From: Candidatus Daviesbacteria bacterium
GTDB taxonomy: Bacteria > Patescibacteriota > Microgenomatia > Daviesbacterales > UBA10151
NCBI GenBank assembly: GCA_030699125.1
Contig: JAUYKM010000009.1
Location: forward strand, 108,647-172,646
Reading direction: 5' to 3'
DNA: 64,000 bases
The notes below the pieces were generated by a model, which ran no database searches, was not told the origin of the DNA, and saw nothing but the letters and a program-made list of their open reading frames with translations. Each line of letters starts with the position of its first letter. The stretch's first letter is position 1. Positions 14,266 through 63,384 of the stretch are shown one piece after another. The position numbers were made by a program, and so were the translations under genes.

Positions 14266-16262
14266 TATATATTTTATCACAATTATTGTTGGGAATATTA
14301 TTTTTATTTGCGGCTTTCTTTACGCTGACTATGCCAGGATTATTCTTCTTAAAGAAACTTAAAATAGAATTTCAAGATTTTTGGGAAAAATTTACCATCT
14401 CCTCAGTCTTAGGATTGGTGCTATTTACGCTAACTGCTTATGTATTATCGGCAATCCATCTAAGGTTTCTAATATGGTCTTTTCCCATTCTTGGTTTTTG
14501 GTCTGTCCTTAAATTCAAGAATGATCTTAAAATTGATTTTAAACTTAAATATAAGATATTTTTCCTTTTAGTTTTAATAATCGGCATAATTGCCCAAGTT
14601 GCTGTTAATGCTCCATCAGGGGCGCCCTATCAAGATGGAATATTTTTTTGGAGCTCACATGGTCATGATGGGATATGGCATATTGCTTTAATGGAAGAGC
14701 TAAAAAAAGATATCTTTCCCTTCCAAAATCCGGAAGTAGCAGGGGAGAAGCTACAAAATTATCATTTTTTTGTCGATCTTTTAATGTCCGAATTTAGCAG
14801 GCTTTATCAATTTTCCAGTTTAGATATTTATTTTAGATTTATGCCAGTGGTATTTTCTTTACTTTTGGGACTAACTTCTTTTATATTTGTGCGGGCATGG
14901 ACAGGTAAGGAACTCGCGGGAATTTGGGCAATGATTTTCACTTTTTTTGCCGGTAGTTTTGGCTACTTACTTTATGTACCCACTCATGGTAGTTTGGGTG
15001 GTGAGGCCATTTTCTGGTTGTCACAAACACATTCAGTATTGGGAAATCCACCTCATGCAGCAGCTTTTATTATAATAACTGTTTTTCTTTTTATCCTTCT
15101 AAAATATCTGAAAAATTATCAGCTGAATTATTTTATTTTATGTGCTTTGCTGGGAGCTGTAGTAATTGAATTTAAAGTCTATGGTGGGCTTTTAATCCTG
15201 GGTGGATTATTGGTCATTGGCATTTGGGAGATAATATCTAAGAGACGCTTAAAGACAATATTGCTTTTCATGGTAACTTCAGCTGGCGCTTTTGGTATTT
15301 ATTTTCCTAACAGTCAAAATTCTCAAGGTTTTTTGATTTTTGAGCCCTGGTGGTATATTCGGACCATGGTAGTGGTACCCGACCGTCTTAACTGGATAGA
15401 TCTAGAGTTAAGGCGGCAACATTACTTGGCCCAGGGGACCTGGAATGCTTACCTTAGAGTACTTCAGCTTGAACTAACAGCTTTTTTAATTTTTCTTATA
15501 GGCAATTTAGGAATGAGGTTTTTGGGATTCTGGACTATTTTTATAATGATCAAGAATAATTTATTCAGAAATTCATTTAGTATTTTCTTTTTAGCCATTA
15601 TTATAGCCTCTTTTGTAATCCCTCATTTATTTTTGCAAAAAGGGGTGGCGTGGAACTCGATACAGTTTAATCAATATTTTATATTGTTTTTTGGCTTTTT
15701 AGCAGGAGCAGCTGTGGACTCACTTATTACCAAATTTAAATATTTATCTATTAAAATTGCTATCGCATCTTTAATAATAATTCTGGCAATTCCCACTCAA
15801 ATTGGTCTTCTTTGGCAATTCTATTCCAATGCCCCCTTGTCAAAAGTTACATATAATGAACTAGAGGGTCTTCAATTTTTAAAAAATGAAACAAAGGATC
15901 AGACAGTTATTCTGACAATGCCGTTTAATAAATATGAGAGAGACAAATATAAGGATCCTCCAATCCCGATTTATGCTTGGTTTGATACAGGTTATGTCTC
16001 TGCTTTTTCCTCCAGAAGGACTCTTATTTCGGATGAAGAACAGGTCAATATCATGGGGTATCAGCTAAATGAATTGATAGAAGAAAGAAAACTTTCATTT
16101 AGCAGCAATGATTATCATATGATGAGTAATTTTATAGATAAATTTAATATAGATTACATATATCTCTCCTGGAAACAAGAATTGGCTACCGACTCTGGCT
16201 TACTCAATCTTGATTTAATTTTTGAAAATAAAGATGCTAAAATTTTTAAAGTAAGAAGATGA
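14262..16262 (+). CDS. Family-C polytopic membrane protein, a GT-C-like paralog.
   Basis: It carries 'SHGHDGIWHIALMEEL...FPFQNPEVAGEKLQNYHFFVDL' and has multiple TM helices. Its 5' end overlaps the upstream gene by 4 nt. Confidence 0.55.
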   Translation: MIYILSQLLLGILFLFAAFFTLTMPGLFFLKKLKIEFQDFWEKFTISSVLGLVLFTLTAYVLSAIHLRFLIWSFPILGFWSVLKFKNDLKIDFKLKYKIFFLLVLIIGIIAQVAVNAPSGAPYQDGIFFWSSHGHDGIWHIALMEELKKDIFPFQNPEVAGEKLQNYHFFVDLLMSEFSRLYQFSSLDIYFRFMPVVFSLLLGLTSFIFVRAWTGKELAGIWAMIFTFFAGSFGYLLYVPTHGSLGGEAIFWLSQTHSVLGNPPHAAAFIIITVFLFILLKYLKNYQLNYFILCALLGAVVIEFKVYGGLLILGGLLVIGIWEIISKRRLKTILLFMVTSAGAFGIYFPNSQNSQGFLIFEPWWYIRTMVVVPDRLNWIDLELRRQHYLAQGTWNAYLRVLQLELTAFLIFLIGNLGMRFLGFWTIFIMIKNNLFRNSFSIFFLAIIIASFVIPHLFLQKGVAWNSIQFNQYFILFFGFLAGAAVDSLITKFKYLSIKIAIASLIIILAIPTQIGLLWQFYSNAPLSKVTYNELEGLQFLKNETKDQTVILTMPFNKYERDKYKDPPIPIYAWFDTGYVSAFSSRRTLISDEEQVNIMGYQLNELIEERKLSFSSNDYHMMSNFIDKFNIDYIYLSWKQELATDSGLLNLDLIFENKDAKIFKVRR

Positions 16263-40699: not shown

Positions 40700-41495
40700 C
40701 CTGATTTCCATAATAGTTCCGGCTTTTAATCAGGAAAAAACCATAGTTCATGATTTAAAAAAAATACATCAAGTTCTTGAGAAACTAAGATATAGCTCTG
40801 AACTTATTTGTGTGGTTGACGGCATGTTGGATAGAACCTTTGAGAAAGCCACCAAGTTTGCCAAAGAATCCCCCCGTATTAAGGTAGTGGGATACGAGAA
40901 AAATAAGGGTAAGGGTTATGCCATACGTTATGGCATAGCGGAAAGTAAGGGGGATATTGTGGGCTTTATAGATGCGGGGATGGATTTAAATCCAAATGGA
41001 TTATCGATGCTTCTTGAGCATTTTGAATGGTACAATGCCGATATTATTGTTGGTTCTAAAAGACACCCTGTTTCTAAGGTGATTTATCCTTGGCAAAGAA
41101 GAGTCCTTTCGCTTGGCTATCAAATTTTAGTAAGATTATTGTTTGGTCTTCGGGTAAGAGACACACAGGTGGGAATGAAATTTTTTAGAAGAGGAGTATT
41201 AAAAAAAGTTTTGCCAAGATTGTTGGTAAAAGAATATGCTTTTGATGTAGAGATGTTGGCCGTTTCCAAATACTTGGGGTTTAATCGAATTTTCGAGGCA
41301 CCTGTAGATATCAAGTTGAGATTTGGGGGAGCATCTACCATTACCAGTCAAAAATTCTTAAGAACAGTCTTGGCTATGTTTTGGGATACTTTGGCAGTAT
41401 TTTATAGGTTGAAAATTCTGAGATACTATTCCGACAAAAATAAGAGAAGATGGAAATTTGACCCGGAGTTAAATTTCAGAATAAATATCGGATGA
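40671..41495 (+). CDS. GT2 polyprenyl-phosphate sugar synthase (Dpm1/GtrB-like; dolichyl or undecaprenyl-phosphate hexosyltransferase).
   Basis: It carries 'ISIIVPAFNQEKTI', 'VVDGMLDRTFEKA', 'EKNKGKGYAIRYG' and 'FIDAGMDLNP' (DXD), plus a C-terminal 'RFGGAS' region. Its 3' end overlaps the downstream GT-C-like gene by 4 nt. Confidence 0.7.
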   Translation: MIREAQKRTSLISIIVPAFNQEKTIVHDLKKIHQVLEKLRYSSELICVVDGMLDRTFEKATKFAKESPRIKVVGYEKNKGKGYAIRYGIAESKGDIVGFIDAGMDLNPNGLSMLLEHFEWYNADIIVGSKRHPVSKVIYPWQRRVLSLGYQILVRLLFGLRVRDTQVGMKFFRRGVLKKVLPRLLVKEYAFDVEMLAVSKYLGFNRIFEAPVDIKLRFGGASTITSQKFLRTVLAMFWDTLAVFYRLKILRYYSDKNKRRWKFDPELNFRINIG

Positions 41496-43387
41496 TTTTA
41501 TTTGACTACATACGTTTCCTTGTATTTTGCTTTCTGATAATTATTCCAGTGGGCGAATTAGTCTTAAGAGTAATAGGTTTTAGGGGCAAGTTTTGGGAGA
41601 CTCTTTTAATAACAACAAATATTGGTTTTATTTTTACTACTCTGGTCGTCTATATTGCGGGTTTAATAGGAATAAATAATATTCTTCCGGCATTAATCCT
41701 ATTACCCTTTTTTCACCTATTAATATTTAGATCTAATTTTTTTGTTAAATTGGTAAGTAAAAAGATAAGTTTAGACATTGTTCTTTTAATTATTATTGCT
41801 GCTGTTGTCATACTACAGGGAGCCCTTAATTTTTATTCAGGCGAAATTCTTCCAGAGGGTATTAGGCTAACAGCAGGACATGCTCATGACAGTTTATGGC
41901 ACATAAGTCTAATAAATAATCTCAAAATACAAATACCTCCGGAAAACCCAATTTATTCAGGGACTTTATTAACTAATTATCATTATTTCACTGATATTTT
42001 TATGGCTTTTGTTTCAAATTTTACGAGTATATCAACTCTTGGCATTTATTTTAAGATAATGGGACCATTTCTGCTTATACTATTTAGCGGTTCGGTTTTT
42101 CTTCTTTCTCTAAGATTGACTGCCAATAAGATTCTCTCCTACATGGCAATTCTTTTAACTGTTCTGAGCAGTAATCTATATTATTTAATAGGAATATTTT
42201 ATGAAAATGCCAAAATTACCCCTTCTGTATTTTGGGTGGATGAATTTGCTACTAGGATGACCAATTTACAGCTTTTGGCATCCTATATAGTCATACTCAC
42301 TGTTCTATACCTAATGCTTATTTTCAGAGAAAAATTTTATATGAAAATCACATTAATCTTATCAATTATCATCTCCTCCCTTTTAGGATTCAAAGCATAC
42401 GGTTTCATACTTATTATGCTATCGTTACTAATTCTTTTTATCTATAGAAGAAGCTTTAATTATTTAAAGCTTAGTTTAGCAAGTATTTTTTTCTCACTTA
42501 TTATTTATAAAAATAGTATCTCTTCAAGCAACTTCCCTTTCATTTTTATGCCCTTTTGGTTTATCAAAAATATGTTTGAGACTGGAGATCATCTAAATTA
42601 CTCAATATGGGAATTAAAAAGACAAACCTATCTTCAGGATAATAACTTTCTTCGTATAGGTACCCTTTACATTGAAGGAATTATAGTTTTTCTTTTAGGA
42701 AATTTAGGAGGAAAAATAGCGGGTTTTTTAACTATATTTCAAAAATATCAAAAAGATAAAATTGATATAATCATAATTCTGACATTGGTATCCGTTTTTG
42801 GAACTTTAATTCCCTGTATCTTTCTCCAAAAGGGAATAGTTTGGAATACCATTCAATTTTTTTATTATTCCTACCTTTCGCTTTCTCTGCTTTTCACACT
42901 TTTTATCTCAAGATTATTGTTAAGAGCAAAACTTATCACATTAATAATTCTCGCCTTTATTTGGGGAACCTTGCTTCCTGGTGTTTTCTATACTTTAGAT
43001 TTATATTCCCCAAATAAATCTTCTATCCAAAACCGCTCAGCTTTAATTGATGCATCTTTTTTTCTTAAGAATCAAGATAAAGGTAATGTTGTGGTAGACC
43101 CTTTATATTATCAGGATTCATTGATTCCGGCTTTATCAGGACAATCAGTATTTATGGCAGATTCAACCCAATTGAATCTCTTGCTTATAAATGATGATGA
43201 TCGGGATAGAGATCTAAGGAATTTTTTTGATGACAAGCTAGAAGAAAATAAATTTAATTTTCTTGAAAATAACAATATTAGATATATAATTTCCAATGAG
43301 GGCAGAATTTTTTTGGATAAAATAATGCAATTAAAAAAAGTTTATTCTAATTCAGAAATTAGTATTTACAAAAATATTTCTAAATAA
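41492..43387 (+). CDS. Family-C polytopic membrane protein (GT-C-like paralog), immediately downstream of a GtrB-like GT2.
   Basis: It carries 'TAGHAHDSLWHISLINNLKIQIPPENPIYSGTLLTNYHYFTDIF' and has multiple TM helices. Confidence 0.55.
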   Translation: MILFDYIRFLVFCFLIIIPVGELVLRVIGFRGKFWETLLITTNIGFIFTTLVVYIAGLIGINNILPALILLPFFHLLIFRSNFFVKLVSKKISLDIVLLIIIAAVVILQGALNFYSGEILPEGIRLTAGHAHDSLWHISLINNLKIQIPPENPIYSGTLLTNYHYFTDIFMAFVSNFTSISTLGIYFKIMGPFLLILFSGSVFLLSLRLTANKILSYMAILLTVLSSNLYYLIGIFYENAKITPSVFWVDEFATRMTNLQLLASYIVILTVLYLMLIFREKFYMKITLILSIIISSLLGFKAYGFILIMLSLLILFIYRRSFNYLKLSLASIFFSLIIYKNSISSSNFPFIFMPFWFIKNMFETGDHLNYSIWELKRQTYLQDNNFLRIGTLYIEGIIVFLLGNLGGKIAGFLTIFQKYQKDKIDIIIILTLVSVFGTLIPCIFLQKGIVWNTIQFFYYSYLSLSLLFTLFISRLLLRAKLITLIILAFIWGTLLPGVFYTLDLYSPNKSSIQNRSALIDASFFLKNQDKGNVVVDPLYYQDSLIPALSGQSVFMADSTQLNLLLINDDDRDRDLRNFFDDKLEENKFNFLENNNIRYIISNEGRIFLDKIMQLKKVYSNSEISIYKNISK

Positions 43388-45617: not shown

Positions 45618-47990
45618 ATGTTGGATTATTCAACAATCGCTTGGATTAAAATTATAGTTTTTTTGATTCCCATTTGGTTTACAGGAATAATAGTGGTTCG
45701 ATCTATCGTTAAGAGACAGAGAGTCGAGCTGGTCCTTCCTGTAGGCTTAATAGTGGGGCTTTCCCTATATGTTTTTTTCTTAAACAGTTTGTCATATATT
45801 TTAACTCCTCCTTGGAGCATCTTAATCTCTTACATAATTTTTCCCATGATAGGATTTATCTTTTGGAGAGTTTGTAAATTTGATAAGTGGGATTTGCTCA
45901 ATGGTAAGATATTATTCGTCTACCTTTTATCACTTTTATTGTGGACAAGCTTATTCATTTGGAAAGGTAATTTTGCTTTAATTGGAAGCGATACAAATCT
46001 TTATTATTCTGTTGCGCATACATTCTTAAATGGTAATTTCCCTCCCAAAACGCCATGGCAGCCGGATCTATCATTAGTTTATCATCTTGGAACCTTTGAA
46101 CTATTAGGTGCTTTTTATTATTTTACAAATCTCCCGTTTCAATTTCTACATATTTTCTTTTCTGCTATTATGATTCTTGCATGTTCGCAGATTATTATTT
46201 GGCTTTGGAAAAGACATGAGTCCTTCATTTCAGTAACTATAATAAATTTAGCAGTTGCTGTAATTTTTATCAGTTTTGGTTTCTTTAAAATAGTGATTCC
46301 CGTCTTTCCTTTAAAATTTCCAAATATACCCTCGATTCATGAGTTTTTTTTATATATCAGAAACCTGCCTACTGTTAATCAGTCAATTGAAGTATATGGA
46401 GCCGCGATTAATTTGGATGGTCTAATTTATTTCATTTTTCATATTTTTGGAATTTCCATATTTATAGCCCTTTTAGCTTTAGTAGTTAATCTCAAAAAGG
46501 AAACCATATATTTGGGATTTACAGTTTTCCTAATTTGTTTGGCTTCCTTAGCTATTATAAATGAATCATTATTTATTGGAGCCTCCTCGTTAATAGTAAT
46601 AAGTTTAATTTATTTGCTTAAGGAGAAAGTTCTTTTAAAAAAGATTAAATTTGTTTCAGTATCTATCCTGATCTTTGGGGTTATTGTTTTGTTTCAAGGG
46701 GGGGTAATAACGAATATTTTGGTAAAAAATGATGCAATTGAATCATCAATAATTTTTTTTCCAAAGAAAGGCCAAATTGAGGGAGATATAGACGCTTATC
46801 ATCTTCATCAACAAATATCAAAAGCATTAGAAGGAAGAAAAAATTGGTATCCTTTCACTTGGATTCATGTGGGAGTTGATTTGTTAATTCTATTTATAAC
46901 TTTATCCATTACTTTCATAAAATATACATCAAATCAGAGGCTGATAATTTTCGCATTATTTCTTGGCGGAGCCCTTTCTTTAATTGCCTATAATAATATA
47001 GTGCCAAAGCTCTTGGCGGCAAATGGTAACAGATTTTTAGGATTTGCATTTATATTTTTTTCATTAGCATTGCTTTACTCCCTTTCTAACTGGATAGGCA
47101 ATTTTCTGAAAGGAAAATCACCCCTTAACTATTTATTAATAATTATTGTGGTGAGTTGGATTTTCTTACCAACGGTTTTGCCGCCATTGACACTTCTTTC
47201 CAAAACTAGATTTGGAGAAAACAAGCTAATTCCCAACGAGTCAATAAGCAGTCCTGGGATTCTGTGGTTGAGAAATAATGCAAATTTTTCCAACAGAGTA
47301 ATGGTCTTAGATAAAAATGCACCTCATCCCAGTGGTCAGGCGCGTGCTTTAGTTGAAGCAGGAATTTTTGCACCGGTTTTTACTGGTAACTTTAGAGCTT
47401 ATACTATTGAAGCCTCTCCGGAATATATTGATACAGCATATTCATTAAGCCCATTAGCTTTGCAAAAATTACAAATCTCTCTACTGCTAATCGATGCAGA
47501 TTTTTACCAGATGTTGCACCAAAAAAGAAAGATTCAATTAGATGATGATAAATACTTCGAAAAAGTTTTTGACAATTCCAATATGCAAAATAATTGGGAA
47601 AAAATTTATAAGATAAAAAAGGAATACTTAAAAAATGGAGAAGAATTAAGCGGTACCCTGGAAGAATTATCGGAAAAATTACTAAAAAGGGAAAAAATTT
47701 ATATAGACAATGAGGAAAATTTTAAGTATGATTTTTTAAGAAGACCAATCATATTTATGTTAAGAAATAAGGATTTATACTTTAATCCTCAGTCAGGTGT
47801 ATATTTAAATGTTGAGGCAAAAATTAATCAAAGGACCCCCGAAGAAGATATTAAATATGATTTTTTAATTTTGGGAAATAAAACTGACTCACATGAGGTT
47901 TGTGATTGCAGTGCAGAATTGATATGGAGGGGATTAAATGGTCAGGTTTATTTATGGAGGTCGGAGTATTTTGGCAAAGTGGAAAAATAA
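45618..47990 (+). CDS. Large polytopic membrane protein (790 aa) with a C-terminal soluble domain of about 280 aa; family unknown.
   Basis: It has at least 14 predicted TM helices over about 500 aa, then a hydrophilic C-terminus. Its 3' end overlaps the convergent GT2 gene by 43 nt. Confidence 0.45.
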   Translation: MLDYSTIAWIKIIVFLIPIWFTGIIVVRSIVKRQRVELVLPVGLIVGLSLYVFFLNSLSYILTPPWSILISYIIFPMIGFIFWRVCKFDKWDLLNGKILFVYLLSLLLWTSLFIWKGNFALIGSDTNLYYSVAHTFLNGNFPPKTPWQPDLSLVYHLGTFELLGAFYYFTNLPFQFLHIFFSAIMILACSQIIIWLWKRHESFISVTIINLAVAVIFISFGFFKIVIPVFPLKFPNIPSIHEFFLYIRNLPTVNQSIEVYGAAINLDGLIYFIFHIFGISIFIALLALVVNLKKETIYLGFTVFLICLASLAIINESLFIGASSLIVISLIYLLKEKVLLKKIKFVSVSILIFGVIVLFQGGVITNILVKNDAIESSIIFFPKKGQIEGDIDAYHLHQQISKALEGRKNWYPFTWIHVGVDLLILFITLSITFIKYTSNQRLIIFALFLGGALSLIAYNNIVPKLLAANGNRFLGFAFIFFSLALLYSLSNWIGNFLKGKSPLNYLLIIIVVSWIFLPTVLPPLTLLSKTRFGENKLIPNESISSPGILWLRNNANFSNRVMVLDKNAPHPSGQARALVEAGIFAPVFTGNFRAYTIEASPEYIDTAYSLSPLALQKLQISLLLIDADFYQMLHQKRKIQLDDDKYFEKVFDNSNMQNNWEKIYKIKKEYLKNGEELSGTLEELSEKLLKREKIYIDNEENFKYDFLRRPIIFMLRNKDLYFNPQSGVYLNVEAKINQRTPEEDIKYDFLILGNKTDSHEVCDCSAELIWRGLNGQVYLWRSEYFGKVEK

Positions 47991-48673
47991 ACTTTCCAAA
48001 TGGCTTTTAAAACATTAAAACCATCTCTTAAAGCTCTGATTCCTGATGCCCCACCCTTTCTTCTAGTGTAAGTAATAGGAATTTGTACCAGTTTCATCCC
48101 CATTCTACAAGCCTTAGTGACAGTTTCCGCCTCATATTCAAAATGCCTTTCTTTTAAATCCAGGGCTAGAAAAGCATCTTTTTTAAACCCTTTAAATCCT
48201 GCCATCACATCGGTAATTTTTCTGTCACAAGCGATGGATGTAGCCAAAGACATGATCCAATTGCCGAAATAGTTTCTAAAACTAATAGAACCTTTCTCAA
48301 TTTTTCCCTGACCACTAAATCTGGTACCAATTACTACATCAGCACCTTTATCTAATGCCTCAACAAAAAGAGGAATTTCCTGAGGCTGAAATTGATGGTC
48401 AGTATCTATTTGAACAATATAATTGCCTGCTGCAAGAAGTCCACCTGCCCAAAAATCCGCCCCCTTACCTCTTTTAAAAGGAAATCTTAAGATTCTATCC
48501 ACTTTCATCCTTTTAGCAATTTGGATAGTTTCATCCTTGGAGGCAGCATCAACTACGATAATTTCTATTGGAAAAAACTTTTTCAGAACTTTGCAATCCT
48601 TAATAGTCCTACCAATATTTTTTTCCTCATTGTAAGAAGTCAAAATTATACTGACCATTTTTTTTCTTTTCAT
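47948..48673 (-). CDS. GT2 polyprenyl-phosphate sugar synthase (Dpm1/GtrB-like).
   Basis: It carries 'VSIILTSYNEEKNIGRTI', 'IIVVDAASKDETIQIAK', 'KRGKGADFWAGG' and 'IVQIDTDHQ' (DXD). Confidence 0.7.
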   Translation of the reverse strand: MKRKKMVSIILTSYNEEKNIGRTIKDCKVLKKFFPIEIIVVDAASKDETIQIAKRMKVDRILRFPFKRGKGADFWAGGLLAAGNYIVQIDTDHQFQPQEIPLFVEALDKGADVVIGTRFSGQGKIEKGSISFRNYFGNWIMSLATSIACDRKITDVMAGFKGFKKDAFLALDLKERHFEYEAETVTKACRMGMKLVQIPITYTRRKGGASGIRALRDGFNVLKAIWKVYFSTLPKYSDLHK

Positions 48674-48708
48674 GATTCTAGAGGCTAGCTTATCCTATAT
48701 AAAAATAC

Positions 48709-48737
48709 TTGTCAATATCGGGTGAATATGCTATAAA
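48709..48737 (+). promoter_or_regulatory. Candidate sigma70-type promoter for gene 48744: a TTGTCA -35 box, a 17-nt spacer, then an extended -10 TGcTATAAA.
   Basis: TTGTCA lies at 48709-48714 and TATAAA at 48732-48737, preceded by TGc. The ATG at 48744 is only 6 nt downstream, suggesting a leaderless or very short-leader mRNA. Confidence 0.35.
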
Positions 48738-48743
48738 ACTCCC

Positions 48744-49775
48744 ATGCCAGAAAAACCAGCAGAATCAAGATGGCTTTATAATCAACCTACTCCCGGTATT
48801 GTAGAGAATTGGTATAGAAGAAATGAGGCTAAGATAAGAAGCCAATGGATTGACCCTAAAATATTAGATGGTGCTTTCATTATGGCAAGTACTGCAGAAG
48901 AGATGAATGGAACGCTTAATTTTAGATATTCGCAAGATAGAGTGGTCATGACTAGAACTGGTTTAGAGGTACCCAGAAGAGATTCACAACTTTATGATGT
49001 TTGGCAAGCTCACAAAAGAGATATGGAAACTAGAGGAGAACGAGATGGGGCAAAATACAGTGTCAGAAGATCCTCTCCATTTCTGACAGATAGTGAACTT
49101 CAGATTGAAGTTTCTGACTTTAGCTGGTCTGGGATGGAACTAAATAATGATGTCAATATAGGCGTACTACCTGAATCATTAAGAGATGGAATATTGCCTA
49201 CCTTAAGATCGGAAGGATACGTTTTTGAGGGTGAACCTCCTAATAATGCAGTTGTCCAAGGTATTATTACCACCAAAGATAAAAAATTAGTTTTAACAAC
49301 AAGAGCTGTTAATGCACAGTATTATCAGGGAACAGTCTCACCCTCTTTTGAGGAGCAAATAGATAGAGATAAAGATGATGATCCTATCGAAACATATTTA
49401 AGGGCTGTCTCATATTCACCGAAATTAAAAAGAGGTGAAGAATTACGACTGAATGTTAGACCCGAAAATATCAGATTAGTCTCTATGGTTTTAGAACCGC
49501 AGTTTAATGCAGTGGGGTTTGTAGTGTTAGGAGTTTGTGAAGAAGAATCCGAGGAAATAGACGAGACTAAGTTTGGGGTGGATAGATCTGAGTTTAATCC
49601 TGAAAAACCAATTTGGACCTTACCATTGGATGAGCCATCTCAACTTCTCAGAGATTTTTATAATCCACAAGGCTTTAGGTGGCATGGAATTGGTAGGGAG
49701 AGAGTGGTAGATGCTCTTGCATCAGTACTTGGTTATGAGGAAGCACTTGATAGATTCTATAAGGCCAGACCTTAA
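48744..49775 (+). CDS. Hypothetical soluble acidic protein of 343 aa; function unknown.
   Basis: It has no TM segment or signal peptide and no motif I recognise. It contains several Cys/Trp and acidic stretches such as 'GVCEEESEEIDE'. It has its own upstream sigma70-like promoter. Confidence 0.5.
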   Translation: MPEKPAESRWLYNQPTPGIVENWYRRNEAKIRSQWIDPKILDGAFIMASTAEEMNGTLNFRYSQDRVVMTRTGLEVPRRDSQLYDVWQAHKRDMETRGERDGAKYSVRRSSPFLTDSELQIEVSDFSWSGMELNNDVNIGVLPESLRDGILPTLRSEGYVFEGEPPNNAVVQGIITTKDKKLVLTTRAVNAQYYQGTVSPSFEEQIDRDKDDDPIETYLRAVSYSPKLKRGEELRLNVRPENIRLVSMVLEPQFNAVGFVVLGVCEEESEEIDETKFGVDRSEFNPEKPIWTLPLDEPSQLLRDFYNPQGFRWHGIGRERVVDALASVLGYEEALDRFYKARP

Positions 49776-49827
49776 AACTTTTCTTCTTGATTTTTGAAGT
49801 TTAATTTAGTAGGATCCTTTTATCTTC

Positions 49828-51156
49828 ATGGACGAGAAAAAAATTGCTATATTTGGGGTAGGCAGAGTAGGACTTCCGCTTGCTTTAGTTTTGGCTGATA
49901 AAGGATTTCAAGTTACGGGAATTGATGTTGATCCCTATAGAATTTCTCTTTTGAAACACAAAATCATGCCTTTTTTGGAAGAAGGGGCACAACCTCTTTT
50001 AGAAAAACATTCTGGTAAAAACTTTCAGATTTTTTCCCAACAACATTTAGATAGGGTAGTATCTGAGAACGATATAATAATTTTAACTTTAGGTACTCCC
50101 ATTGATGATACCTACAGTCCTGACTTTGGTGGAATAGAGGATTTATTAAGAAGTATGGCACCTTCAATAAAGAATGACCATCTAATTATTTTTAGAAGCA
50201 CTTTATCCCCTGGAGCTACTGAACAATTAGCAAGGCAGTTAGAAGAACAGACAAAACTAGAAGTTGGGAAAAATTTATTTATTGTTTATTGCCCGGAAAG
50301 AATTGCTGAGGGAAAATCAGTTGAGGAGTTGGGACAAATCCCTCAAATAATTGGTAGCTTGGATGATGTAAGTGCCAAAAAAGCAGCGGAAGTTTTTGAA
50401 AAAATTGCTCCCAAAATTTTATTTACTAACCCCCGTTCTGCCGAACTTGCCAAATTATTTTGCAATATGTATCGCTATATTGATTTTGCCATCGGGAATG
50501 AATTCATGATGATTGCAGAAGATTATGGATGTGATATTTATGAAGTTTTAAATTTAGTTAATAATGACTATAAAAGGGCTGGGTTAAAAGCTCCCGGCTT
50601 GACTGCGGGTCCGTGTCTTGTTAAGGACGGCTTTTTCCTGATAGATAAGAGCCCTTTTATGGAACTGGTCACGGCAGCATGGAGACTTAATGAGAATATT
50701 CCAGGATATTTACTTTCCAAAATTAAGTCGGAAATTAAGGATTTACACAAGAAGAAAGTGGCTATTTTAGGTTTGGCATTTAAGAAAAATATTGATGATA
50801 TCCGCTATTCTCTTTCTCCAAAAATGCAAAGATATTTTTTAGCAGAAGGGGCAGATGTTTCTGTTTCGGATCCTTTTATAGATTCTAAACCAATCGAGGG
50901 TGCTCTAAAAGGGACAAATATCTTGGTGATTGGTATAAATCATGATATTTATAAAAATTTGGATTTTGGTTATTTAAAAAAATTGGTCTCTGATGATTGT
51001 TTGGTCTGTGATATCTGGAATATCTTTAACACCGGAAAAATCATCTTTTATTTAAAAGATGTGGTTGCTAAATCAGAGGATGGGATTCGATCAAATGGGG
51101 AGGTTAGACCATATAGTAAAAAAAGGAAGGCGGAACGCCCTGGATTAGGTGTATGA
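49828..51156 (+). CDS. Nucleotide-sugar 6-dehydrogenase (UDP-glucose / UDP-ManNAc dehydrogenase family).
   Basis: It carries the N-terminal Rossmann motif 'KIAIFGVGRVGLPLAL', then 'CPERIAEGKSVEEL', 'GPCLVKDG' with the catalytic Cys, and 'GLAFKKNIDDIRYS'. Confidence 0.7.
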   Translation: MDEKKIAIFGVGRVGLPLALVLADKGFQVTGIDVDPYRISLLKHKIMPFLEEGAQPLLEKHSGKNFQIFSQQHLDRVVSENDIIILTLGTPIDDTYSPDFGGIEDLLRSMAPSIKNDHLIIFRSTLSPGATEQLARQLEEQTKLEVGKNLFIVYCPERIAEGKSVEELGQIPQIIGSLDDVSAKKAAEVFEKIAPKILFTNPRSAELAKLFCNMYRYIDFAIGNEFMMIAEDYGCDIYEVLNLVNNDYKRAGLKAPGLTAGPCLVKDGFFLIDKSPFMELVTAAWRLNENIPGYLLSKIKSEIKDLHKKKVAILGLAFKKNIDDIRYSLSPKMQRYFLAEGADVSVSDPFIDSKPIEGALKGTNILVIGINHDIYKNLDFGYLKKLVSDDCLVCDIWNIFNTGKIIFYLKDVVAKSEDGIRSNGEVRPYSKKRKAERPGLGV

Positions 51157-52109
51157 AGACAAAGATACTGGTGACAGGTGGGGCGGGATTTATTGGTAGT
51201 GAGGTTGTAAAACAACTTATTGAAAGAGGGTACCAAGTCAGAGTAGCTGATGATTTATCAAAAAAAGAGGCTAAAGTCCCTAAAGAATGTGAGTTCTTGA
51301 AGCTTGATTTGACTAAAAAAGAAGCAGCGTTACGGGCAATGGAAGGGATAGATTATTGCATACATTTGGCAGCCAAAATTGGCGGGATTGGCTATTTTCA
51401 TAAATATCCAGCAACAATACTTTCCGAAAATAATAAAATGTACTCTGCTGTGTTTGAAGCAGCGGTTGCCAAAAAAATAAAAAGAATTATTTATTTATCC
51501 TCATCCATGGTTTTTGAATCAACTAATAGATTTCCCAGTAAAGAGAGTGATTTGGATAAAATTCCCCCTCCGGTCTCAAGTTATGGTTTCTCCAAATTAG
51601 TGGGGGAGTGGTACTGCAGAGCTTTTAGAGACGAATATGGACTCCCTTACACCATCATAAGACCCTTTAATGCTTATGGCATAAATGAAGCTCCAGGAGA
51701 AGAGATAGGTTATGCTCATGTTATCCCGGATTTAATAAAAAAAATATTGTCTGGCCAATATCCGCTGGAACTTTTAGGAAATGGAAGGCAAACCAGATGT
51801 TTTACTCATGTTTCAGATATTACTAGGGGAATAATACTGGCCATGGAATCTGATAAAGCAATTAATGATGATTTCAATATTGGCTCGGAGAAAGAAATGA
51901 GGATGCTAGATTTAGCAGAGCTACTCTGGCGAAAATGTAATGCAGACAAACCATTTAAAGTTAAATATGTAAAAGGCTTTAAATACGATATTAAAAGAAG
52001 AGTACCATCCTCAAAAAAAACAAAAAAAATATTGAAATGGGAACCCAAAAAGAAATTTGAGCAAGAGTTACCGGAAATTATTAATTGGATTAGTCATAGT
52101 ATTTCTTAA
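51153..52109 (+). CDS. NAD-dependent nucleotide-sugar epimerase/dehydratase (extended SDR).
   Basis: It carries 'KILVTGGAGFIGSEVVKQL', the 'YGFSK' active-site YxxxK motif, and 'RPFNAYG'. Its 5' end overlaps gene 49828 by 4 nt. Confidence 0.75.
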   Translation: MKTKILVTGGAGFIGSEVVKQLIERGYQVRVADDLSKKEAKVPKECEFLKLDLTKKEAALRAMEGIDYCIHLAAKIGGIGYFHKYPATILSENNKMYSAVFEAAVAKKIKRIIYLSSSMVFESTNRFPSKESDLDKIPPPVSSYGFSKLVGEWYCRAFRDEYGLPYTIIRPFNAYGINEAPGEEIGYAHVIPDLIKKILSGQYPLELLGNGRQTRCFTHVSDITRGIILAMESDKAINDDFNIGSEKEMRMLDLAELLWRKCNADKPFKVKYVKGFKYDIKRRVPSSKKTKKILKWEPKKKFEQELPEIINWISHSIS

Positions 52110-52839
52110 AATTGTTTAATCTAATCCTTAAAAGATCATATAAAGATGTAATAATATCGTGAGGCAGTTTCACCTTAGTATTTGAGTCATCTCTCCAGGT
52201 TACCGGCATCTCTTTTATATTAAAACCCCTTTTCTTGCCTATAAAAAGTATTTCCGAATCAAAACCCCAACGATCAATCCTTTGCCTTCTAAAAATTTCC
52301 TCGGCTGCTTTTTTTGAAAAGCATTTGAATCCACAAGTAAAATCCAATAGATTAAGGCCCAAGAAAATTTGAGATAACTTTGTAAATCCTTTACCTAATT
52401 TCTCGCGAATTTTCGGCTGATGCATCAATAATTTTGCCCCTCTTTTTTTCCTTGAGCCAATCAAAATATCAAACTTTTTAAGATGCGGAAGGTAATTATC
52501 AAATTCTTCAATCGGTGTAGAAAAATCAATATCTGTGAAAAGCCGGTAATCGCCTTTTGCTTTAAGCATACCGGTTTTGATTGCAAATCCCTTGCCCTTA
52601 TTCATTTGATAAGAAATTAGTTCGAAAAAATGATGAGGAGGTAGTTGCTTCAATATTTTTCTGATTAATTTTAAACTTTCATCTGTACTGCCATCATTTA
52701 CGAGAATAACTTCAGTTGAGAACTTTTTTTGTCTCAAATAATGAAAAAGTAAGGAGAGATTAGCAATTCTTCCCCCTTCGTTATAAAAGGGAATAATAAT
52801 AGATAAAAAAGGAATATCAATTTTTTTTCTTCTCTTCAT
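52090..52839 (-). CDS. GT2 polyprenyl-phosphate sugar synthase (Dpm1/GtrB-like).
   Basis: It carries 'LSIIIPFYNEGGRI', 'VILVNDGSTDES', 'NKGKGFAIKTG' and 'LFTDIDFSTP' (DXD). Confidence 0.7.
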   Translation of the reverse strand: MKRRKKIDIPFLSIIIPFYNEGGRIANLSLLFHYLRQKKFSTEVILVNDGSTDESLKLIRKILKQLPPHHFFELISYQMNKGKGFAIKTGMLKAKGDYRLFTDIDFSTPIEEFDNYLPHLKKFDILIGSRKKRGAKLLMHQPKIREKLGKGFTKLSQIFLGLNLLDFTCGFKCFSKKAAEEIFRRQRIDRWGFDSEILFIGKKRGFNIKEMPVTWRDDSNTKVKLPHDIITSLYDLLRIRLNNFKKYYD

Positions 52840-54688: not shown

Positions 54689-55294
54689 CTAGTCTAAAAA
54701 GACCGAATATATAGTTATGATTAAATCTTTATTTTCATCAAATTCCTTTGCTCCGATTGATACTGCTTCATAATCTCCAGAGAGCCAATTAAGCCGTTTC
54801 TCCTGTTCGACCTGTCCGCTATCAATTTGCCAATCTAATGTTATGATATTATTAATTTCATCAGTACCAATATCCTGGGGTTGCCAACCGGGTCCCTGGC
54901 CTACTCTATGTATACCGATATCAAACTTTATAGGTTGATTAACCTCCATTTTGATGTTAATTGTTTTAGCGCGGAATAATATTTCTTTTGGGATTCTCTT
55001 TTTGCACTGTATCATGAAATGAGTAGTATCCTTGTAGGTAAACTGGATATGTGATTCCACTTCATCATTAAAAGATTTGGTACTAGAGATCAGGAAAGGT
55101 TTTTTTATTACGTCAACCCAAGAGTTAATATCATTAAGGTCACAAGCGTAAAACCGCTCAGTTAACCGTTGTGGTTTAATTGGGTTGGCAGTAACAAATA
55201 TCGTCCATGTAAACACTATAGTAATTATAATTACTAATAGTTTATTAATTAAGTGAAACCTATTTATTTTCAGTATGCGACTCAAGTACATCAT
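54689..55294 (-). CDS. Small N-terminally anchored or secreted protein, paralog A (201 aa); function unknown.
   Basis: The N-terminal TM is 'LLVIIITIVFTWTIFV', followed by 'ANPIKP'. It has two conserved Cys, 'VNQPIKFDIGIHRVGQGPGWQP' and 'RLNWLSGDYE'. Confidence 0.55.
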   Translation of the reverse strand: MMYLSRILKINRFHLINKLLVIIITIVFTWTIFVTANPIKPQRLTERFYACDLNDINSWVDVIKKPFLISSTKSFNDEVESHIQFTYKDTTHFMIQCKKRIPKEILFRAKTINIKMEVNQPIKFDIGIHRVGQGPGWQPQDIGTDEINNIITLDWQIDSGQVEQEKRLNWLSGDYEAVSIGAKEFDENKDLIITIYSVFLD

Positions 55295-57068
55295 CTTTTA
55301 TATCAATAAGCTTTGTGCCCTCAATACGAAATGCAAAAAATGAATTAGTGGCAATAAGATCTTCTTTCTCTTCATTAAGGATATTATTGATGTCTTCTCT
55401 ATTAAATATAAAGTTTACCTGAGGCGGATTATTTATTTCTCCTAAATGTATAGGTACTCTCCTTTTAAATACTGCATTTGCTATTTTTTCATCAAAATCC
55501 TTATCAAGCTCTAAATAAATATAAGTTACTTCTTCCTTTGCCAGGAGCTGAGAAATAGTAGGCTCAAGCATAATCCATACAGAGTCATACTTAGAAGCAT
55601 TAATATTATGACCTTCTTGTATCAGAAATTCTCTTGTCGAAATTGCCTGAATAAATATGAGCCACAAACCGATTACAATAAGAAAGAAACTAAAAACAAT
55701 TGAAGTGAAATAACTAAAAAGGGACGATAATTGGAATAAATTTCTTTTTACTTGCAGTAGACGATCTTTAATTGAATAAAAACAAATGGCAAGTACCGAA
55801 CCTATTAGCATACCCATACCTATACTTGGAACAGTGTAATAACGATGTATATAGGTAAATGCTGATTGATCATTTCCTGAAACTTCTGGAGATATTAACC
55901 ATGGTATCAAAAGATTAGCAAGCACAATGCCACTACCCAAAAGGCCTATTTGAGAAATTTCTTTAAACCGATTCCAATATTTAATAAGTACTAGATTTGA
56001 TAGGAGGAAAAAAGTACCGCCAAACTGAGTAATTGGTATCCAAACGGCTTGCCAACCTTCAAGATTTTTTAAGGAATAACCTACCAGAGGCGAGAAGATC
56101 ACTACTGGGATTGATAAAAACACCAGTAAAAACTTCCTTTTTAAAAAGAGATTAAATGAGAAGAGTATCGCAAATAAGGGGATAATCTGTGGTAAGTTTT
56201 GTATCAGGGTAGTGCTTATATAGCCATAATTTACAGAGAATGGTGAGATAATTAGGTTGCTGATAAAAAACCATAAGGAAAGTATAACTGGAGGATACCC
56301 TGTAAAAAGGGCCAGCAATAAAATGGACGGAGAGACTCTTTTATATGATAATTCAGGGGTAGAACTTAATGTACCGGTTATAAAGATAAGCAAAAAAATG
56401 ACAGCGATAAGGGTAAGAAAGTGATAAACTCTGATTCTCCTACCCCTCTCTTTATAATTTTTGAAAAACCAATAAAATTCTCCTGCAAAAGTCAAAAGAA
56501 CAGTACCTACCAATCTTACAGGATGAGTAAGAACGGTTAATAAAAAAAAGGAAATTGAGCCTATAAGTGTTTTTCTGGTGGGGTGTTGGTGAAATTGAAA
56601 CCACTTTCCCAAAAAAAATGAAAAAACTATTATTGCTGTATATATTTGAAAAAGAGATACTCGAGTAGTTGACTGAATTCCTGCAGTATTAATTCCAAAA
56701 AAGAGTGCAGCAATAGAGGCTGTTATTCTATTTTTTGACCATTTAACAACAAAATAATATATCGATATAACAGCTAAAATTCTCAAGACCACATTTAAAA
56801 TAAAATAATATTTAGAGTTAAAATCAAAAAAGCGGTAGGCAATAGCTAAAGAGGTAAATTGAGTACCATATTGATGAAAATAATAAAGAGGTGAAGGATG
56901 CAGAAAGCTCACATTTCTGCCAAAATGCCCCTCACCTTTAACAATGCTTAAATCCTCATGACTTGGATCAGGAAGGATATGAAAGAGTGCAGGATATAAA
57001 ACAATAAAAGTCACTATGACTACAAATAGGATAGGTAAAAATGATAAAAAATTATGTTTAAAGGTCAT
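55260..57068 (-). CDS. Polytopic membrane protein of 602 aa (GT-C-like candidate), downstream of a GtrB-like GT2.
   Basis: It has about 13 TM helices and a C-terminal hydrophilic domain of about 150 aa. Its 5' end overlaps GT2 gene 57065 by 4 nt. Confidence 0.45.
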   Translation of the reverse strand: MTFKHNFLSFLPILFVVIVTFIVLYPALFHILPDPSHEDLSIVKGEGHFGRNVSFLHPSPLYYFHQYGTQFTSLAIAYRFFDFNSKYYFILNVVLRILAVISIYYFVVKWSKNRITASIAALFFGINTAGIQSTTRVSLFQIYTAIIVFSFFLGKWFQFHQHPTRKTLIGSISFFLLTVLTHPVRLVGTVLLTFAGEFYWFFKNYKERGRRIRVYHFLTLIAVIFLLIFITGTLSSTPELSYKRVSPSILLLALFTGYPPVILSLWFFISNLIISPFSVNYGYISTTLIQNLPQIIPLFAILFSFNLFLKRKFLLVFLSIPVVIFSPLVGYSLKNLEGWQAVWIPITQFGGTFFLLSNLVLIKYWNRFKEISQIGLLGSGIVLANLLIPWLISPEVSGNDQSAFTYIHRYYTVPSIGMGMLIGSVLAICFYSIKDRLLQVKRNLFQLSSLFSYFTSIVFSFFLIVIGLWLIFIQAISTREFLIQEGHNINASKYDSVWIMLEPTISQLLAKEEVTYIYLELDKDFDEKIANAVFKRRVPIHLGEINNPPQVNFIFNREDINNILNEEKEDLIATNSFFAFRIEGTKLIDIKDDVLESHTENK

Positions 57069-60843: not shown

Positions 60844-61466
60844 AAATTTTCTTTGATCTAGATGGGACACTGATAGATGTATCGAAAAGATATTATTTTG
60901 TCCATAAAAAAGCGGCACTAGTTATTGGCAAAAAATCGTTATCTTTTAAAGAATATTGGCAAAAAAAAAGAAAAAAAATTCCAGAGAATAAAATCTTAAA
61001 TATAGATAGCGAGAGTTCTCAATTTAAAGAATATCAGAAAATAAGAATAAATTTGTTAGAAAATTTAGACTATCTGAGTCTAGATACCCCATTTGAAAAT
61101 GTATTTGATACCTTGGTTGCATTGACCAAAAAACATAAGTTGTATCTGATTACCTTGAGAAGGAATGAAAAGAATTTAAATACCCAACTTAAACAACTTA
61201 AACTAAATAAATTTTTCATAAAAATTTTTTCATCTCCTCCGGATAAAGATCTTACAATAACAAAAATAAAAATTATAAAGAACTTGGGATACTCAAAGAA
61301 TGATTTGATTATAGGGGATACGGAAGCTGACACTGAAGCGGCAAAAAAATTAGGTATAAGATCTGTGGCAGTATTTAGCGGAATTAGGACTGAATCTTTT
61401 TTAAAAAAATATCATCCGGATATATTAATTAAAGATGTTTCGCATTTGCTCAAGATCCACTTATGA
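60840..61466 (+). CDS. HAD-superfamily hydrolase/phosphatase.
   Basis: It carries motif I 'FFDLDGTL' and motif IV 'GDTEADTEAAKKLG'. Confidence 0.7.
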   Translation: MKIFFDLDGTLIDVSKRYYFVHKKAALVIGKKSLSFKEYWQKKRKKIPENKILNIDSESSQFKEYQKIRINLLENLDYLSLDTPFENVFDTLVALTKKHKLYLITLRRNEKNLNTQLKQLKLNKFFIKIFSSPPDKDLTITKIKIIKNLGYSKNDLIIGDTEADTEAAKKLGIRSVAVFSGIRTESFLKKYHPDILIKDVSHLLKIHL

Positions 61467-61482
61467 TAATATAAAATTCAGC

Positions 61483-63384
61483 ATGCCTTTTTTAAAAAAT
61501 TCTACCTTTTGGATTTTTACACTATTACTAGTTATTGTATCGGTTATTCAATTTACGATATTTCAGCCATTAATTGAGAATAGCCGTCTAATTAATTTTA
61601 GAGATGATTTATTGTTTCTTTTAATGTACAAAACATTGGATCCTGAGCCTATAAGTCAATTTTGGAATGTTTGGACAAAATACTCCGGTCTACACAACAC
61701 GGCCCATGTGTATCACATTGGAATATTGTCTGAATTTTTAGGTAACAACTATCAATATTATCCAACAGCAAATATTTTATTAAAAATTGTGGCAACTTTA
61801 TCTATTTTTCCTGCGGTAATTGTTATTTTTAAAAACAGATTACTGGCTTTTTTATCCTCCATTCTTTTTAGTATTAGCTCTGCCACTGCCGGTTCGCTTT
61901 TTCGGGTAAGTAATGGAAATGATTACGTAGCATTGACAATAATGAATATTTTCTTTATCAGTTATTATTGGATTTTCGTAAAGCATTCAAAAGGGCTGCT
62001 TGTATTATCAGCTCTTCTTTTTTTTATAGCTTATTTAACATCTCCTGGTAGAATATTTCCACTATTGTTGCTTATTTTTCTAGTTGAAATATTCTGGTTA
62101 TTGAAATTGCGCAATATTAATAATATAGGATTTTCCTTAGTTAGAATAATCTTCTATCTCATTCCAGTTTTTCTAATCTCTATTCCGGCGCCTGTTTCTA
62201 CATGCTGTCCCCTTATCAGTCAATCGCATACGTTACTTAAGGATATTATCAGCGGTAGTTTGTTTAATTTACTTGATCCCTTTGCATCAATTGGATGGAC
62301 AATATTTACCAATGATTACTGGAGATTTTTCGGCATCTTTGATTACAAAAGTTTAACTAATTTTGGTGATTACTTATCCTTCTTACTTAAAGGCCCAACT
62401 TTTATTTTCGGAACCTTGACACTTATATTATCTTTAATTTTAGTTAAAAAGCCACTCAGATTTTTCTTAAAGGTTTTTATTTTTAATTTTACACTTGAGG
62501 TTTTAATATTTTTTATAGCCAACAAGCATCCTACTCTAACAGAAGCGGACACATTCCAGTTACTCTTATTAAGATATCCAACATTGGTAAGCATATATAT
62601 TCTAACTTTAGCTTTGATTATTTTTTTGAGTTGGAGGAAAAATGATCTCAAAAGTGGTGTATCAAACGCTTTATGGGTTGGACCATTTATATCAATAATA
62701 TTTTTATGGCCAATGTGGGTTATAATGGGCCGTTTAATTAATGATTGGCATAGTGTGATTAGATATTTTCTCTGGCCAGCCTTAGGAACCTCTTTATTTG
62801 TGGGAGTAATATTATCTGCATTTTATGAAAGATTAAAAGGTAAAGATTTCCTTAGATACCTTTCAGTAATTATTATTTCTATTATCATCTTTAATTTATA
62901 CTTAAATAACAAAGAGGCCATTCAAAAAGAATTTCTGCCCGAAGGTGCACAGAAAATCAAAGTTACAGATCAGCGAATATTACAGGAGAAATTAGTAAGA
63001 AAATTGGATAGATCTGCTCAGAAAGGTGATCTATTAATTTATTTTGATTTTGAACAATCTGATTTGGGTTCTCAATATTATATTGAAGCCCTTCCTGTAG
63101 AGGCATTAGGAGTTATGCTCCATGTTAATAGAGGAAAGGGAACAAGTGGCTGTATAGCTGGTTTTACTGATCAAAAGGTATTTAAAAGTAGTATTAAAGA
63201 AAAAAATAATGAAATTGGCTTTGAGTACCCAGGGGTTTGTGTTAATGAAGATATAGTAAAAGCGGGTCTCAAAGAGAGTACAGAACCTCATTTCTTCACA
63301 CTTGATAAATTCTATGCGTTTAGTATAGAAAACGGAGATTTTGTGGATGTAAAAACTGATGTTTTAAGGGAATTAGGTATTTAA
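61483..63384 (+). CDS. Large polytopic membrane protein with a C-terminal soluble domain; family unknown.
   Basis: It has more than 12 TM helices and a hydrophilic C-terminus of about 170 aa. The start is placed at the ATG at 61483 (MPFLKNSTFW) to avoid a 32-nt overlap with the HAD gene. Confidence 0.45.
   Translation: MPFLKNSTFWIFTLLLVIVSVIQFTIFQPLIENSRLINFRDDLLFLLMYKTLDPEPISQFWNVWTKYSGLHNTAHVYHIGILSEFLGNNYQYYPTANILLKIVATLSIFPAVIVIFKNRLLAFLSSILFSISSATAGSLFRVSNGNDYVALTIMNIFFISYYWIFVKHSKGLLVLSALLFFIAYLTSPGRIFPLLLLIFLVEIFWLLKLRNINNIGFSLVRIIFYLIPVFLISIPAPVSTCCPLISQSHTLLKDIISGSLFNLLDPFASIGWTIFTNDYWRFFGIFDYKSLTNFGDYLSFLLKGPTFIFGTLTLILSLILVKKPLRFFLKVFIFNFTLEVLIFFIANKHPTLTEADTFQLLLLRYPTLVSIYILTLALIIFLSWRKNDLKSGVSNALWVGPFISIIFLWPMWVIMGRLINDWHSVIRYFLWPALGTSLFVGVILSAFYERLKGKDFLRYLSVIIISIIIFNLYLNNKEAIQKEFLPEGAQKIKVTDQRILQEKLVRKLDRSAQKGDLLIYFDFEQSDLGSQYYIEALPVEALGVMLHVNRGKGTSGCIAGFTDQKVFKSSIKEKNNEIGFEYPGVCVNEDIVKAGLKESTEPHFFTLDKFYAFSIENGDFVDVKTDVLRELGI

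Follow-up and report, generated by a model that had tools for sequence, protein, structure and literature searches.

The window analysed here, a 64,000-nt stretch of a Candidatus Daviesbacteria contig, carries at positions 48744..49775 of the forward strand a gene whose product is a very divergent bacterial member of the Nudix superfamily with NUDT22-type architecture, which standard family libraries do not recognise. We hold the fold and the homology to human NUDT22 with high confidence. Our preferred functional reading, to which we give a probability of roughly 0.55, is that the protein is a metal-dependent nucleoside diphosphate (NDP)-sugar pyrophosphatase of the NUDT22 type, probably acting on uridine diphosphate (UDP)-sugars, which recycles or trims the sugar pool and returns uridine monophosphate (UMP), its gene being transcribed from a promoter of its own that leaves almost no mRNA leader or none.

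Human NUDT22 (PDB 5LOR, 5LOU, 5LF9) is a UDP-glucose/UDP-galactose hydrolase; it splits UDP-glucose into UMP plus glucose-1-phosphate and serves pyrimidine salvage (PMC10101856). We infer a catalytic activity, a substrate and a physiological role for the window protein as follows. The cytoplasmic two-domain protein would bind its substrate, a UDP-sugar or some other NDP-sugar, between the N-domain and the Nudix domain, and a divalent metal would be held by the invariant E232/E233, probably aided by E203/E204 and E251. Placed in a glycan island beside a dehydrogenase/epimerase pair, it would trim or recycle the activated-sugar pool, with UMP returned; at loci where an inositol-phosphatase-family (IMPase) gene lies directly upstream, the sugar-1-phosphate could be dephosphorylated further. 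Because bacteria of the Candidate Phyla Radiation (CPR) are generally thought to depend on nucleotide salvage, the return of UMP would be useful here.

The window protein is identical to Q8P92_01860, a "hypothetical protein" of a Candidatus Daviesbacteria metagenome-assembled genome. An entry missed by Pfam, NCBIfam and PADLOC thus becomes a testable enzyme candidate, and the two-domain architecture known from human NUDT22 has remote bacterial relatives, including in the CPR. In the papers we found that mention NUDT22, a set with incomplete literature coverage, no bacterial NUDT22-like protein is described. If the proposed activity is real, it would show how organisms with reduced genomes control or recycle activated sugars beside very large glycan islands, and it would offer a simple bacterial model of NUDT22-type catalysis in which the Nudix box is degenerate in another way. 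The advance is useful but incremental, since it does not overturn current understanding and the mechanism is unsurprising. The gene and the parts of its product are listed below.

48744..49775, + strand: coding sequence of the NUDT22-like Nudix-fold protein, 343 amino acids (aa), ATG start, GenBank locus tag Q8P92_01860
48744..48908, + strand: N-terminal extension, residues 1-55, with no NUDT22 counterpart; the motif ESRWLYNQP...W[YF]RRNE is conserved in the alignment
48909..49238, + strand: NUDT22-type N-domain, residues ~56-165, with the motif G-x-K-[YFL]-S/H-[VL]-H/R
49239..49772, + strand: Nudix-fold domain, residues ~166-343, ending in the invariant W-H314-G-x-G/S-R318-x-R320
49329..49451, + strand: degenerate Nudix-box region, residues 196-236, G196-TVSPS-F-E203-E204-Q...R220-A-V...K229-R-G-E232-E233-L-R-L

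Fold, family and the degenerate Nudix box

The AlphaFold2 model, made from a 16-sequence alignment, has a predicted local distance difference test score (pLDDT) of 79.6 and a predicted template modelling score (pTM) of 0.83, with residues 1-15 and 225-233 weakly modelled. The protein has the alpha/beta/alpha Nudix fold and the two-domain architecture in which a NUDT22-type N-domain precedes the Nudix domain. A Foldseek search with an AlphaFold model had been suggested by an earlier reading of the DNA made without databases (the sequence-only reading); in this search, human NUDT22 supplies all of the best six PDB matches (E 2.8e-8 to 1.9e-6, 308-342 alignment columns). NudC/NUDT12 (E ~1e-4), isopentenyl diphosphate (IPP) isomerases and generic Nudix enzymes follow. 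The template modelling score (TM-score) is ~0.51 to NUDT22 versus ~0.32 to NudC/NUDT12.

Profiles of the wide family place NUDT22 first as well. A wide family alignment of 36 sequences, at ~20% identity, gave a profile that ranked NUDT22 first (E 0.0028) among 177,635 distinct PDB sequences. With hhalign, the wide family matched 22 NUDT22 N-terminal fragments with a probability of 96.5% (E 8.9e-10) and full human NUDT22 with 89.6% (E 1.9e-6, 228 columns). The NUDT22 fragment search had yielded mostly exon-sized pieces, and the full human sequence was taken from a PDB alignment obtained with an approximate query. As in the structural match, the profile homology is detectable across both domains. 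The alignments start at window residues 54-61, facing NUDT22 residues 13-15, and the one with full human NUDT22 pairs window residues 61-302 with NUDT22 residues 15-263; in the N-domain, G102-x-K104-Y-S-V aligns with NUDT22 K60-F-R-L-H-S65. Identity between the two proteins is ~12%.

The open reading frame (ORF) is a real, conserved gene. The sequence-only reading had called the product an orphan; a word-indexed search returned 16 full-length proteins with 40-100% identity to it, and an exhaustive search of 1.84 billion cluster representatives with a profile returned 249 proteins at E <= 1e-3. The core family comprises 14 of the 249 (E <= 1e-30), and its named members are Daviesbacteria. The remaining matches form a long tail of proteins of 300-500 aa that match from residue ~60-100 to the C-terminus. 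In the 16-sequence alignment, mean column identity is 64%, 41 columns are invariant and the N-terminus is conserved from residue 1, in support of the annotated start. The ORF has no in-frame start further upstream, and no antisense ORF of at least 60 aa overlaps it. The family is linked transitively, by sequence, to recognised Nudix members, for three of its distant profile matches (P0037, P0041 and P0043) exceed the gathering score of Pfam PF00293 NUDIX, and the P0043 cluster, from Chloroflexota, carries the annotation "NUDIX domain-containing protein". P0043 (446 aa) has an N-terminal helix-turn-helix at residues 9-64 fused to the NUDT22-like body, so the wider family may include branches that act as ligand-responsive regulators. 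One apparent match, P0022 (2967 aa; E 4e-62 from 28 summed weak matches), is a false positive, an adhesin-like protein of near-perfect tandem repeats rich in Thr, Ala and Ser, and is to be left out of family counts. Scans of genome contigs for related loci found no relatives, and a scan of metagenomes recovered the P0006 locus again and nothing else.

That the ORF might be spurious, or recently acquired from a foreign source, is effectively refuted. Its GC content (0.386) is the highest of the 47 ORFs in the window (mean 0.334, standard deviation 0.024), Pfam and NCBIfam give no match to the protein beyond a chance DdfA hit at E 0.1, PADLOC gives none, and no Shine-Dalgarno (SD) sequence is visible ahead of the ATG at 48744. 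Set against these features are full-length homologues with a conserved start reaching down to 31-40% identity, a confident fold prediction and close relatives that all come from Daviesbacteria or metagenome contigs. The GC content at third codon positions (GC3) is ordinary (0.256 versus 0.286, standard deviation 0.032, for window ORFs), so the GC excess sits in codon positions 1 and 2; it reflects amino-acid content, that of a charged soluble protein among membrane proteins rich in Ile, Lys and Asn. We rejected a foreign origin because GC3 is native. The sequence-only reading was correct that the composition stands out by GC, but with native GC3 the difference does not mark the gene as out of the ordinary. 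Aberrant codon usage together with a lack of homologues, which it had named as signs of a spurious ORF, is not what we see, since GC3 is ordinary and homologues exist. Its description of a soluble, acidic protein of 343 aa also agrees with the product, which is hydrophilic (isoelectric point 4.90, net charge -14, grand average of hydropathy -0.65). The absence of a recognisable motif, which it also reported, is true of Pfam and NCBIfam matches; a degenerate Nudix box is nonetheless present.

In this box, the PGG-x-x-E element is replaced by S-F-E203-E204-Q followed by a long insert, then come the helix R220-A-V, a 4-residue insertion present only in the core clade and K229-R-G-E232-E233-L-R-L. 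What remains of the consensus is [KR]229...E232-E233-x-x-L236, with the G-x5-E part replaced and the Glu after the Arg gone. In the wider family the last segment reads R-G-x-x-E-E-L, near the canonical R-E-U-x-E-E. NUDT22 likewise has no conventional Nudix box and is a phylogenetic outlier among human Nudix proteins (PMC5688067). The two proteins resemble each other in an unconventional box whose helix is preceded by a long insertion and, as far as the alignment places them, in two acidic residues at the canonical EE position: hhalign sets E232/E233 on D192/E193 of NUDT22 Q188-E-I-C-D-E193, and E251 on NUDT22 E213. They differ in the ~55 additional N-terminal residues of the window protein and their conserved motif, in its S-F-E-E-Q where NUDT22 has PGGHPEP, in the loss of acidity at the E189 position, in its C-terminal W-H-G-x-G-R-x-R, which has no aligned NUDT22 counterpart (the alignment stops at window residue 302), and in taxonomic origin, bacterial (CPR) versus eukaryotic. 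Canonical single-domain or dimeric Nudix NDP-sugar pyrophosphatases (such as NUDT14, the Bdellovibrio NDP-sugar hydrolase 5C7Q and ADP-ribose pyrophosphatases) have a full GX5EX7REUXEEXGU box and no NUDT22-type N-domain.

The residues that persist in the family may point to catalysis. E233, H314 and G330 are invariant in the 36-sequence alignment, and P166, T177, D179, R187, E203, E251 and R320 each persist in 90% or more of its sequences. Retention of acidic, His and Arg residues at such low identity would be the pattern expected of an active site and not of a decayed one. According to reviews, NUDT22 and the nucleotide-sugar Nudix enzymes related to it cannot do without the glutamates that coordinate Mg2+ (PMC7729866). 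Another reading is that the protein has the Nudix fold but no catalytic activity and binds a nucleotide sugar or a similar ligand; it would then sense or regulate glycan synthesis, or some other process, as the Nudix-related regulators NrtR and AraR do. The degenerate box without the Glu that would match NUDT22 E189, the helix-turn-helix of P0043 and a gene body that appears swapped or fast-evolving inside a conserved locus frame (see below) are in its favour. We think this improbable, because neither a DNA-binding domain nor any other effector domain is present in the window protein, because E203, E233, E251, H314 and R320 are conserved across the wide family in an active-site-like pattern, and because NUDT22 is active despite its own unconventional box (PMC5688067, PMC10101856). 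Of the two guesses offered by the sequence-only reading, a regulator finds no backing here, with neither a DNA-binding domain nor any sign of a regulatory role. The other, a nucleotide-sugar pathway enzyme, appears the better one, as the best structural and profile match is a UDP-glucose hydrolase.

Type-1 IPP isomerases, like NudC/NUDT12, have the Nudix-fold core in common with the window protein and are among its next-best structural matches, so an enzyme acting on isoprenoid diphosphates is conceivable. We consider this very unlikely. The isomerase match is limited to the Nudix domain (156-176 residues), whereas the NUDT22 match covers both domains (242 residues). The metal site of type-1 isomerases uses several His residues, and the enzymes are characterised by this His/Glu metal site together with a catalytic Cys/Glu pair. 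The alignments do not show that pattern: H314 is the sole invariant His, and C265 is conserved in the core clade only and not in the wide family. Residue patterns that define IPP isomerases and NudC/NUDT12 are both absent from the family.

Gene neighbourhoods and the choice of substrate

The genes on either side of the Nudix-like gene, as the sequence-only reading had stated, are a divergent family 2 glycosyltransferase (GT2) and a dehydrogenase with an overlapping epimerase/dehydratase.

47948-48673, - strand: GT2, polyprenyl-phosphate hexosyltransferase-like, divergent from the Nudix-like gene; best partial matches AglJ and dolichyl-phosphate hexose transferase
49828-51156, + strand: nucleotide-sugar dehydrogenase (TIGR03026, 298 bits versus a cut-off of 190)
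51153-52109, + strand: NAD-dependent epimerase/dehydratase, with a 4-nt overlap with the dehydrogenase

The GT2 and the Nudix-like gene have a 70-nt intergenic region in common, and the epimerase/dehydratase is translationally coupled to the dehydrogenase through the 4-nt overlap. The nearest equivalogs of the dehydrogenase are UDP-N-acetylmannosamine (UDP-ManNAc) dehydrogenases, for which it falls below the cut-offs. It may be the functional partner of the Nudix-like protein, which would give the window protein, by its neighbours, the link to nucleotide-sugar metabolism that NUDT22 has by biochemistry (PMC10101856). The neighbourhoods of the homologues fall into the following contexts.

Window, L017, L008, L013 and L005: nucleotide-sugar dehydrogenase adjacent (convergent in L005)
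L006, L007 and L018: IMPase-family gene directly upstream (weak in L013)
L006 271-1137, L007 281-1159 and L018 ~381-1127: the IMPase-family genes (PF00459) upstream of the homologue
L011/L012, L014 and L015/L016: secE-nusG-rplK-rplA upstream
L001-L004: ftsA-ftsZ upstream, ileS downstream

Conservation and synteny in relatives, which the sequence-only reading had singled out for checking, thus show a conserved family with neighbours that vary among loci; the glycosylation setting it described holds in the window and is not fixed, as homologues also follow rplA, ftsZ or an IMPase-family gene. The divergent GT2 arrangement recurs in L017 and L013. In a neighbour-joining tree the contexts are interspersed, with the dehydrogenase context on four separate branches and the rplA context on the deepest ones. 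The recurrent IMPase-family neighbour may reflect the functional pairing of a sugar-1-phosphate phosphatase with a pyrophosphatase. The L018 IMPase-family gene seems truncated or frameshifted in the gene call. In L013 the GT2 and the homologue are separated by a gene (3971-4978) that is weakly IMPase-like and no orthologue of the others. This 335-aa gene was considered as a paralogue of the Nudix-like gene and rejected (hhalign 0.1%); it is weakly IMPase-like instead.

An active Nudix pyrophosphatase could also have another substrate, such as an RNA 5' end or cap (UDP-glucose, UDP-N-acetylglucosamine or NAD, as with RppH- or NudC-like enzymes), NADH, ADP-ribose, CoA or an inositol pyrophosphate. 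Housekeeping surroundings at four loci (after secE-nusG-rplK-rplA, or after ftsA-ftsZ and before ileS) fit such a role, NudC/NUDT12 enzymes, which decap NAD-RNA, are the next-best two-domain Foldseek matches, and NUDT22 itself has been discussed as a candidate decapping enzyme for UDP-sugar caps (PMC11253889). The IMPase-family neighbour could equally mean inositol-phosphate chemistry. However, the NudC/NUDT12 TM-scores are low, the sequence homology is specific to the NUDT22 N-domain, the dehydrogenase recurs as a neighbour on four branches of the tree and no RNA-binding feature was identified in the window protein. We therefore judge another substrate unlikely, although it is the alternative we take most seriously.

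Several points weigh against an NDP-sugar pyrophosphatase of the NUDT22 type. The window protein lacks the 23-residue Nudix box GX5EX7REUXEEXGU, and the Pfam NUDIX family gives no match to it even at E 0.1. Where NUDT22 has E189, the core family shows a hydrophobic residue or a gap and the wider family a Gly, and the loop that bears E232/E233 (residues 225-233) is modelled with low confidence. On its own, the core-family profile is weak toward NUDT22 (hhalign 71%) and has no match among PDB sequences; sequence searches of the PDB with the single window protein or the core family returned nothing useful. The fold does not disclose the substrate, and promiscuity is notorious among Nudix enzymes. 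Mixed synteny (after rplA at three loci and after ftsZ at one) argues for a general housekeeping role over a pathway-specific one. As for the promoter part of the proposal, the window -10 hexamer, TATAAA, lacks the conserved final T.

The setting of the putative NDP-sugar pyrophosphatase in the window has a partial parallel in GDP-mannose mannosyl hydrolase (Gmm/WcaH), also encoded by a Nudix-superfamily gene set among glycan-synthesis genes. Gmm/WcaH is thought to tune the activated-sugar pool in polysaccharide gene clusters. Unlike the window protein, Gmm is small and single-domain, and it cuts the sugar C1-O bond to yield GDP and mannose; the chemistry is described in PMC7729866. We saw no specific similarity to Gmm, which is absent from the top structural matches. 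A bolder proposal, which we find doubtful, is that the Nudix-like protein and the recurrent upstream IMPase form an undescribed CPR salvage route that would turn surplus UDP-sugars, or UDP-sugar acids produced by the neighbouring dehydrogenase, into UMP and free sugar and provide pyrimidines for cells unable to synthesise them, a bacterial counterpart of the salvage role lately proposed for NUDT22 in human cells, with its specificity swapped by recombination together with the island, or that the protein is the missing bacterial decapping enzyme for UDP-sugar-capped RNA.

Recombination may have shaped these loci. Between the window, L008 and L013, identity is 76-81% for the dehydrogenases but only 35-40% for the adjoining Nudix-like proteins. 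In L008 (1-2870), the flanks (promoter, first ~85 nt and downstream gene) have 76-83% DNA identity to L017 and to 47000-52500 of the window. The L008 Nudix-like gene body has no nucleotide similarity to either, and protein identity is 40%. Since the flanks are similar and the gene body is not, a divergent allele appears to have been exchanged inside a conserved locus frame; the pattern has the look of an allele replaced by recombination, or of a contig that is chimeric. Allele exchange may be common within such glycan loci.

Two further features of the homologue loci were noted. A membrane protein of the LPG_synthase_TM family (PF03706) is encoded near the homologue in L006 (2201-3184), L014 (4573-5574) and L011 (8504-9487); it is convergent and directly downstream of the homologue in two of these loci and two genes off in the third. 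In L011/L012, from one Daviesbacteria genome, a PIN/MazE-type toxin-antitoxin pair lies between rplK and rplA (4336-5015).

A promoter-like element that abuts the start codon

The Nudix-like gene would be transcribed from its own sigma-70-type promoter, the -10 element of which abuts the start codon. The promoter-like elements of this gene and of the dehydrogenase are as follows.

48709..48714, + strand: -35-like hexamer TTGTCA, read directly, with a 17-nt spacer to the -10
48729..48737, + strand: extended -10-like TGcTATAAA (hexamer 48732-48737, TG 48729-48730), followed by the 6 nt actccc and the ATG
49787-49792 and 49810-49815, + strand: dehydrogenase promoter-like element TTGATT / 17 nt / TAGGAT, 12 nt before the ATG at 49828

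The site upstream of the Nudix-like gene reads as the sequence-only reading had given it, with TTGTCA, 17 nt and TGcTATAAA ending 6 nt before the ATG. Taken alone it is weak evidence, and it exceeds chance only through the comparison of loci. A generic scan of the region found 52 promoter-like sites, barely over the chance expectation of 39.9 +/- 7.5, and omitted the site at 48732-48737 because TATAAA has no T at position 6.

The comparison used the called or best-supported start codon at each locus. All 12 homologue loci have a -35-like element (at least 4 of 6 positions), a spacer of exactly 17 nt and a -10-like element that ends 6-15 nt before the start, and they score 9-11 of 12. By the same procedure, only 14% of 95 control genes drawn from 10 loci score at least 9 (Mann-Whitney p 2e-7), and 19% of the 58 with an upstream gap (p 1.5e-6). 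TTGTCA stands at equal spacing upstream of the homologues in L017 and L008, and the orthologous -10 sites are TATAGT, TATAAT, TATATT, TAGAAT and TAAAAT. The geometry persists where the contexts are unrelated, also 17-70 nt downstream of rplA or ftsZ. Window, L017 and L008 have homologous upstream regions, which leaves ~8 independent contexts among the 12 loci. We discounted the L014 distance because the start of that homologue is in doubt: the gene call begins at a TTG, and the closest ATG upstream of it lies in another frame.

The canonical distance from a -10 element to the transcription start is 7 nt as a rule of thumb, which places the predicted start of the Nudix-like transcript at or beside A48744. 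As the -10 abuts the start codon, the predicted mRNA would have no leader or one of at most ~9 nt. Only 8 of the 47 window genes have SD-like motifs, so the absence of one here is not distinctive and does not speak for a spurious ORF. In these Daviesbacteria genomes, it may be common for an mRNA to have a very short leader or none, given the rarity of SD motifs and the 14-19% of controls with a close -35/-10 pair, that is, one ending within 16 nt of the start codon. To our knowledge, there are essentially no transcript maps for CPR bacteria, and the conserved start-abutting promoter provides a concrete set of loci for probing leaderless translation in them. No terminator is predicted between the Nudix-like gene and the dehydrogenase, and monocistronic expression and read-through are therefore both possible. 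A search of 47500-50500 found no Rfam element, only a sub-threshold chance match to a snoRNA.

The surrounding glycan island

The whole window is a single very large glycan-biosynthesis island of at least 60 kb. It encodes six or more membrane glycosyltransferases of the PMT_2 type (GT-C), several of which lie in tandem runs of paralogue-sized ORFs of ~500-580 aa, together with a PTPS_related membrane protein, YfhO, two Polysacc_synt_3 flippases, multiple GT2 and GT4 glycosyltransferases, PIG-M/PIG-V-like mannosyltransferases, a methyltransferase and sugar-modifying oxidoreductases, including a GFO/IDH/MocA oxidoreductase. Six large ORFs in the window have no Pfam match (10846-14265, 14262-16262, 41492-43387, 45618-47990, 55260-57068 and 61435-63384). 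One of them, at 45618-47990 on the + strand, encodes a multi-pass membrane protein of 790 aa and overlaps the GT2 gene by 43 nt (47948-47990) at their convergent 3' ends.

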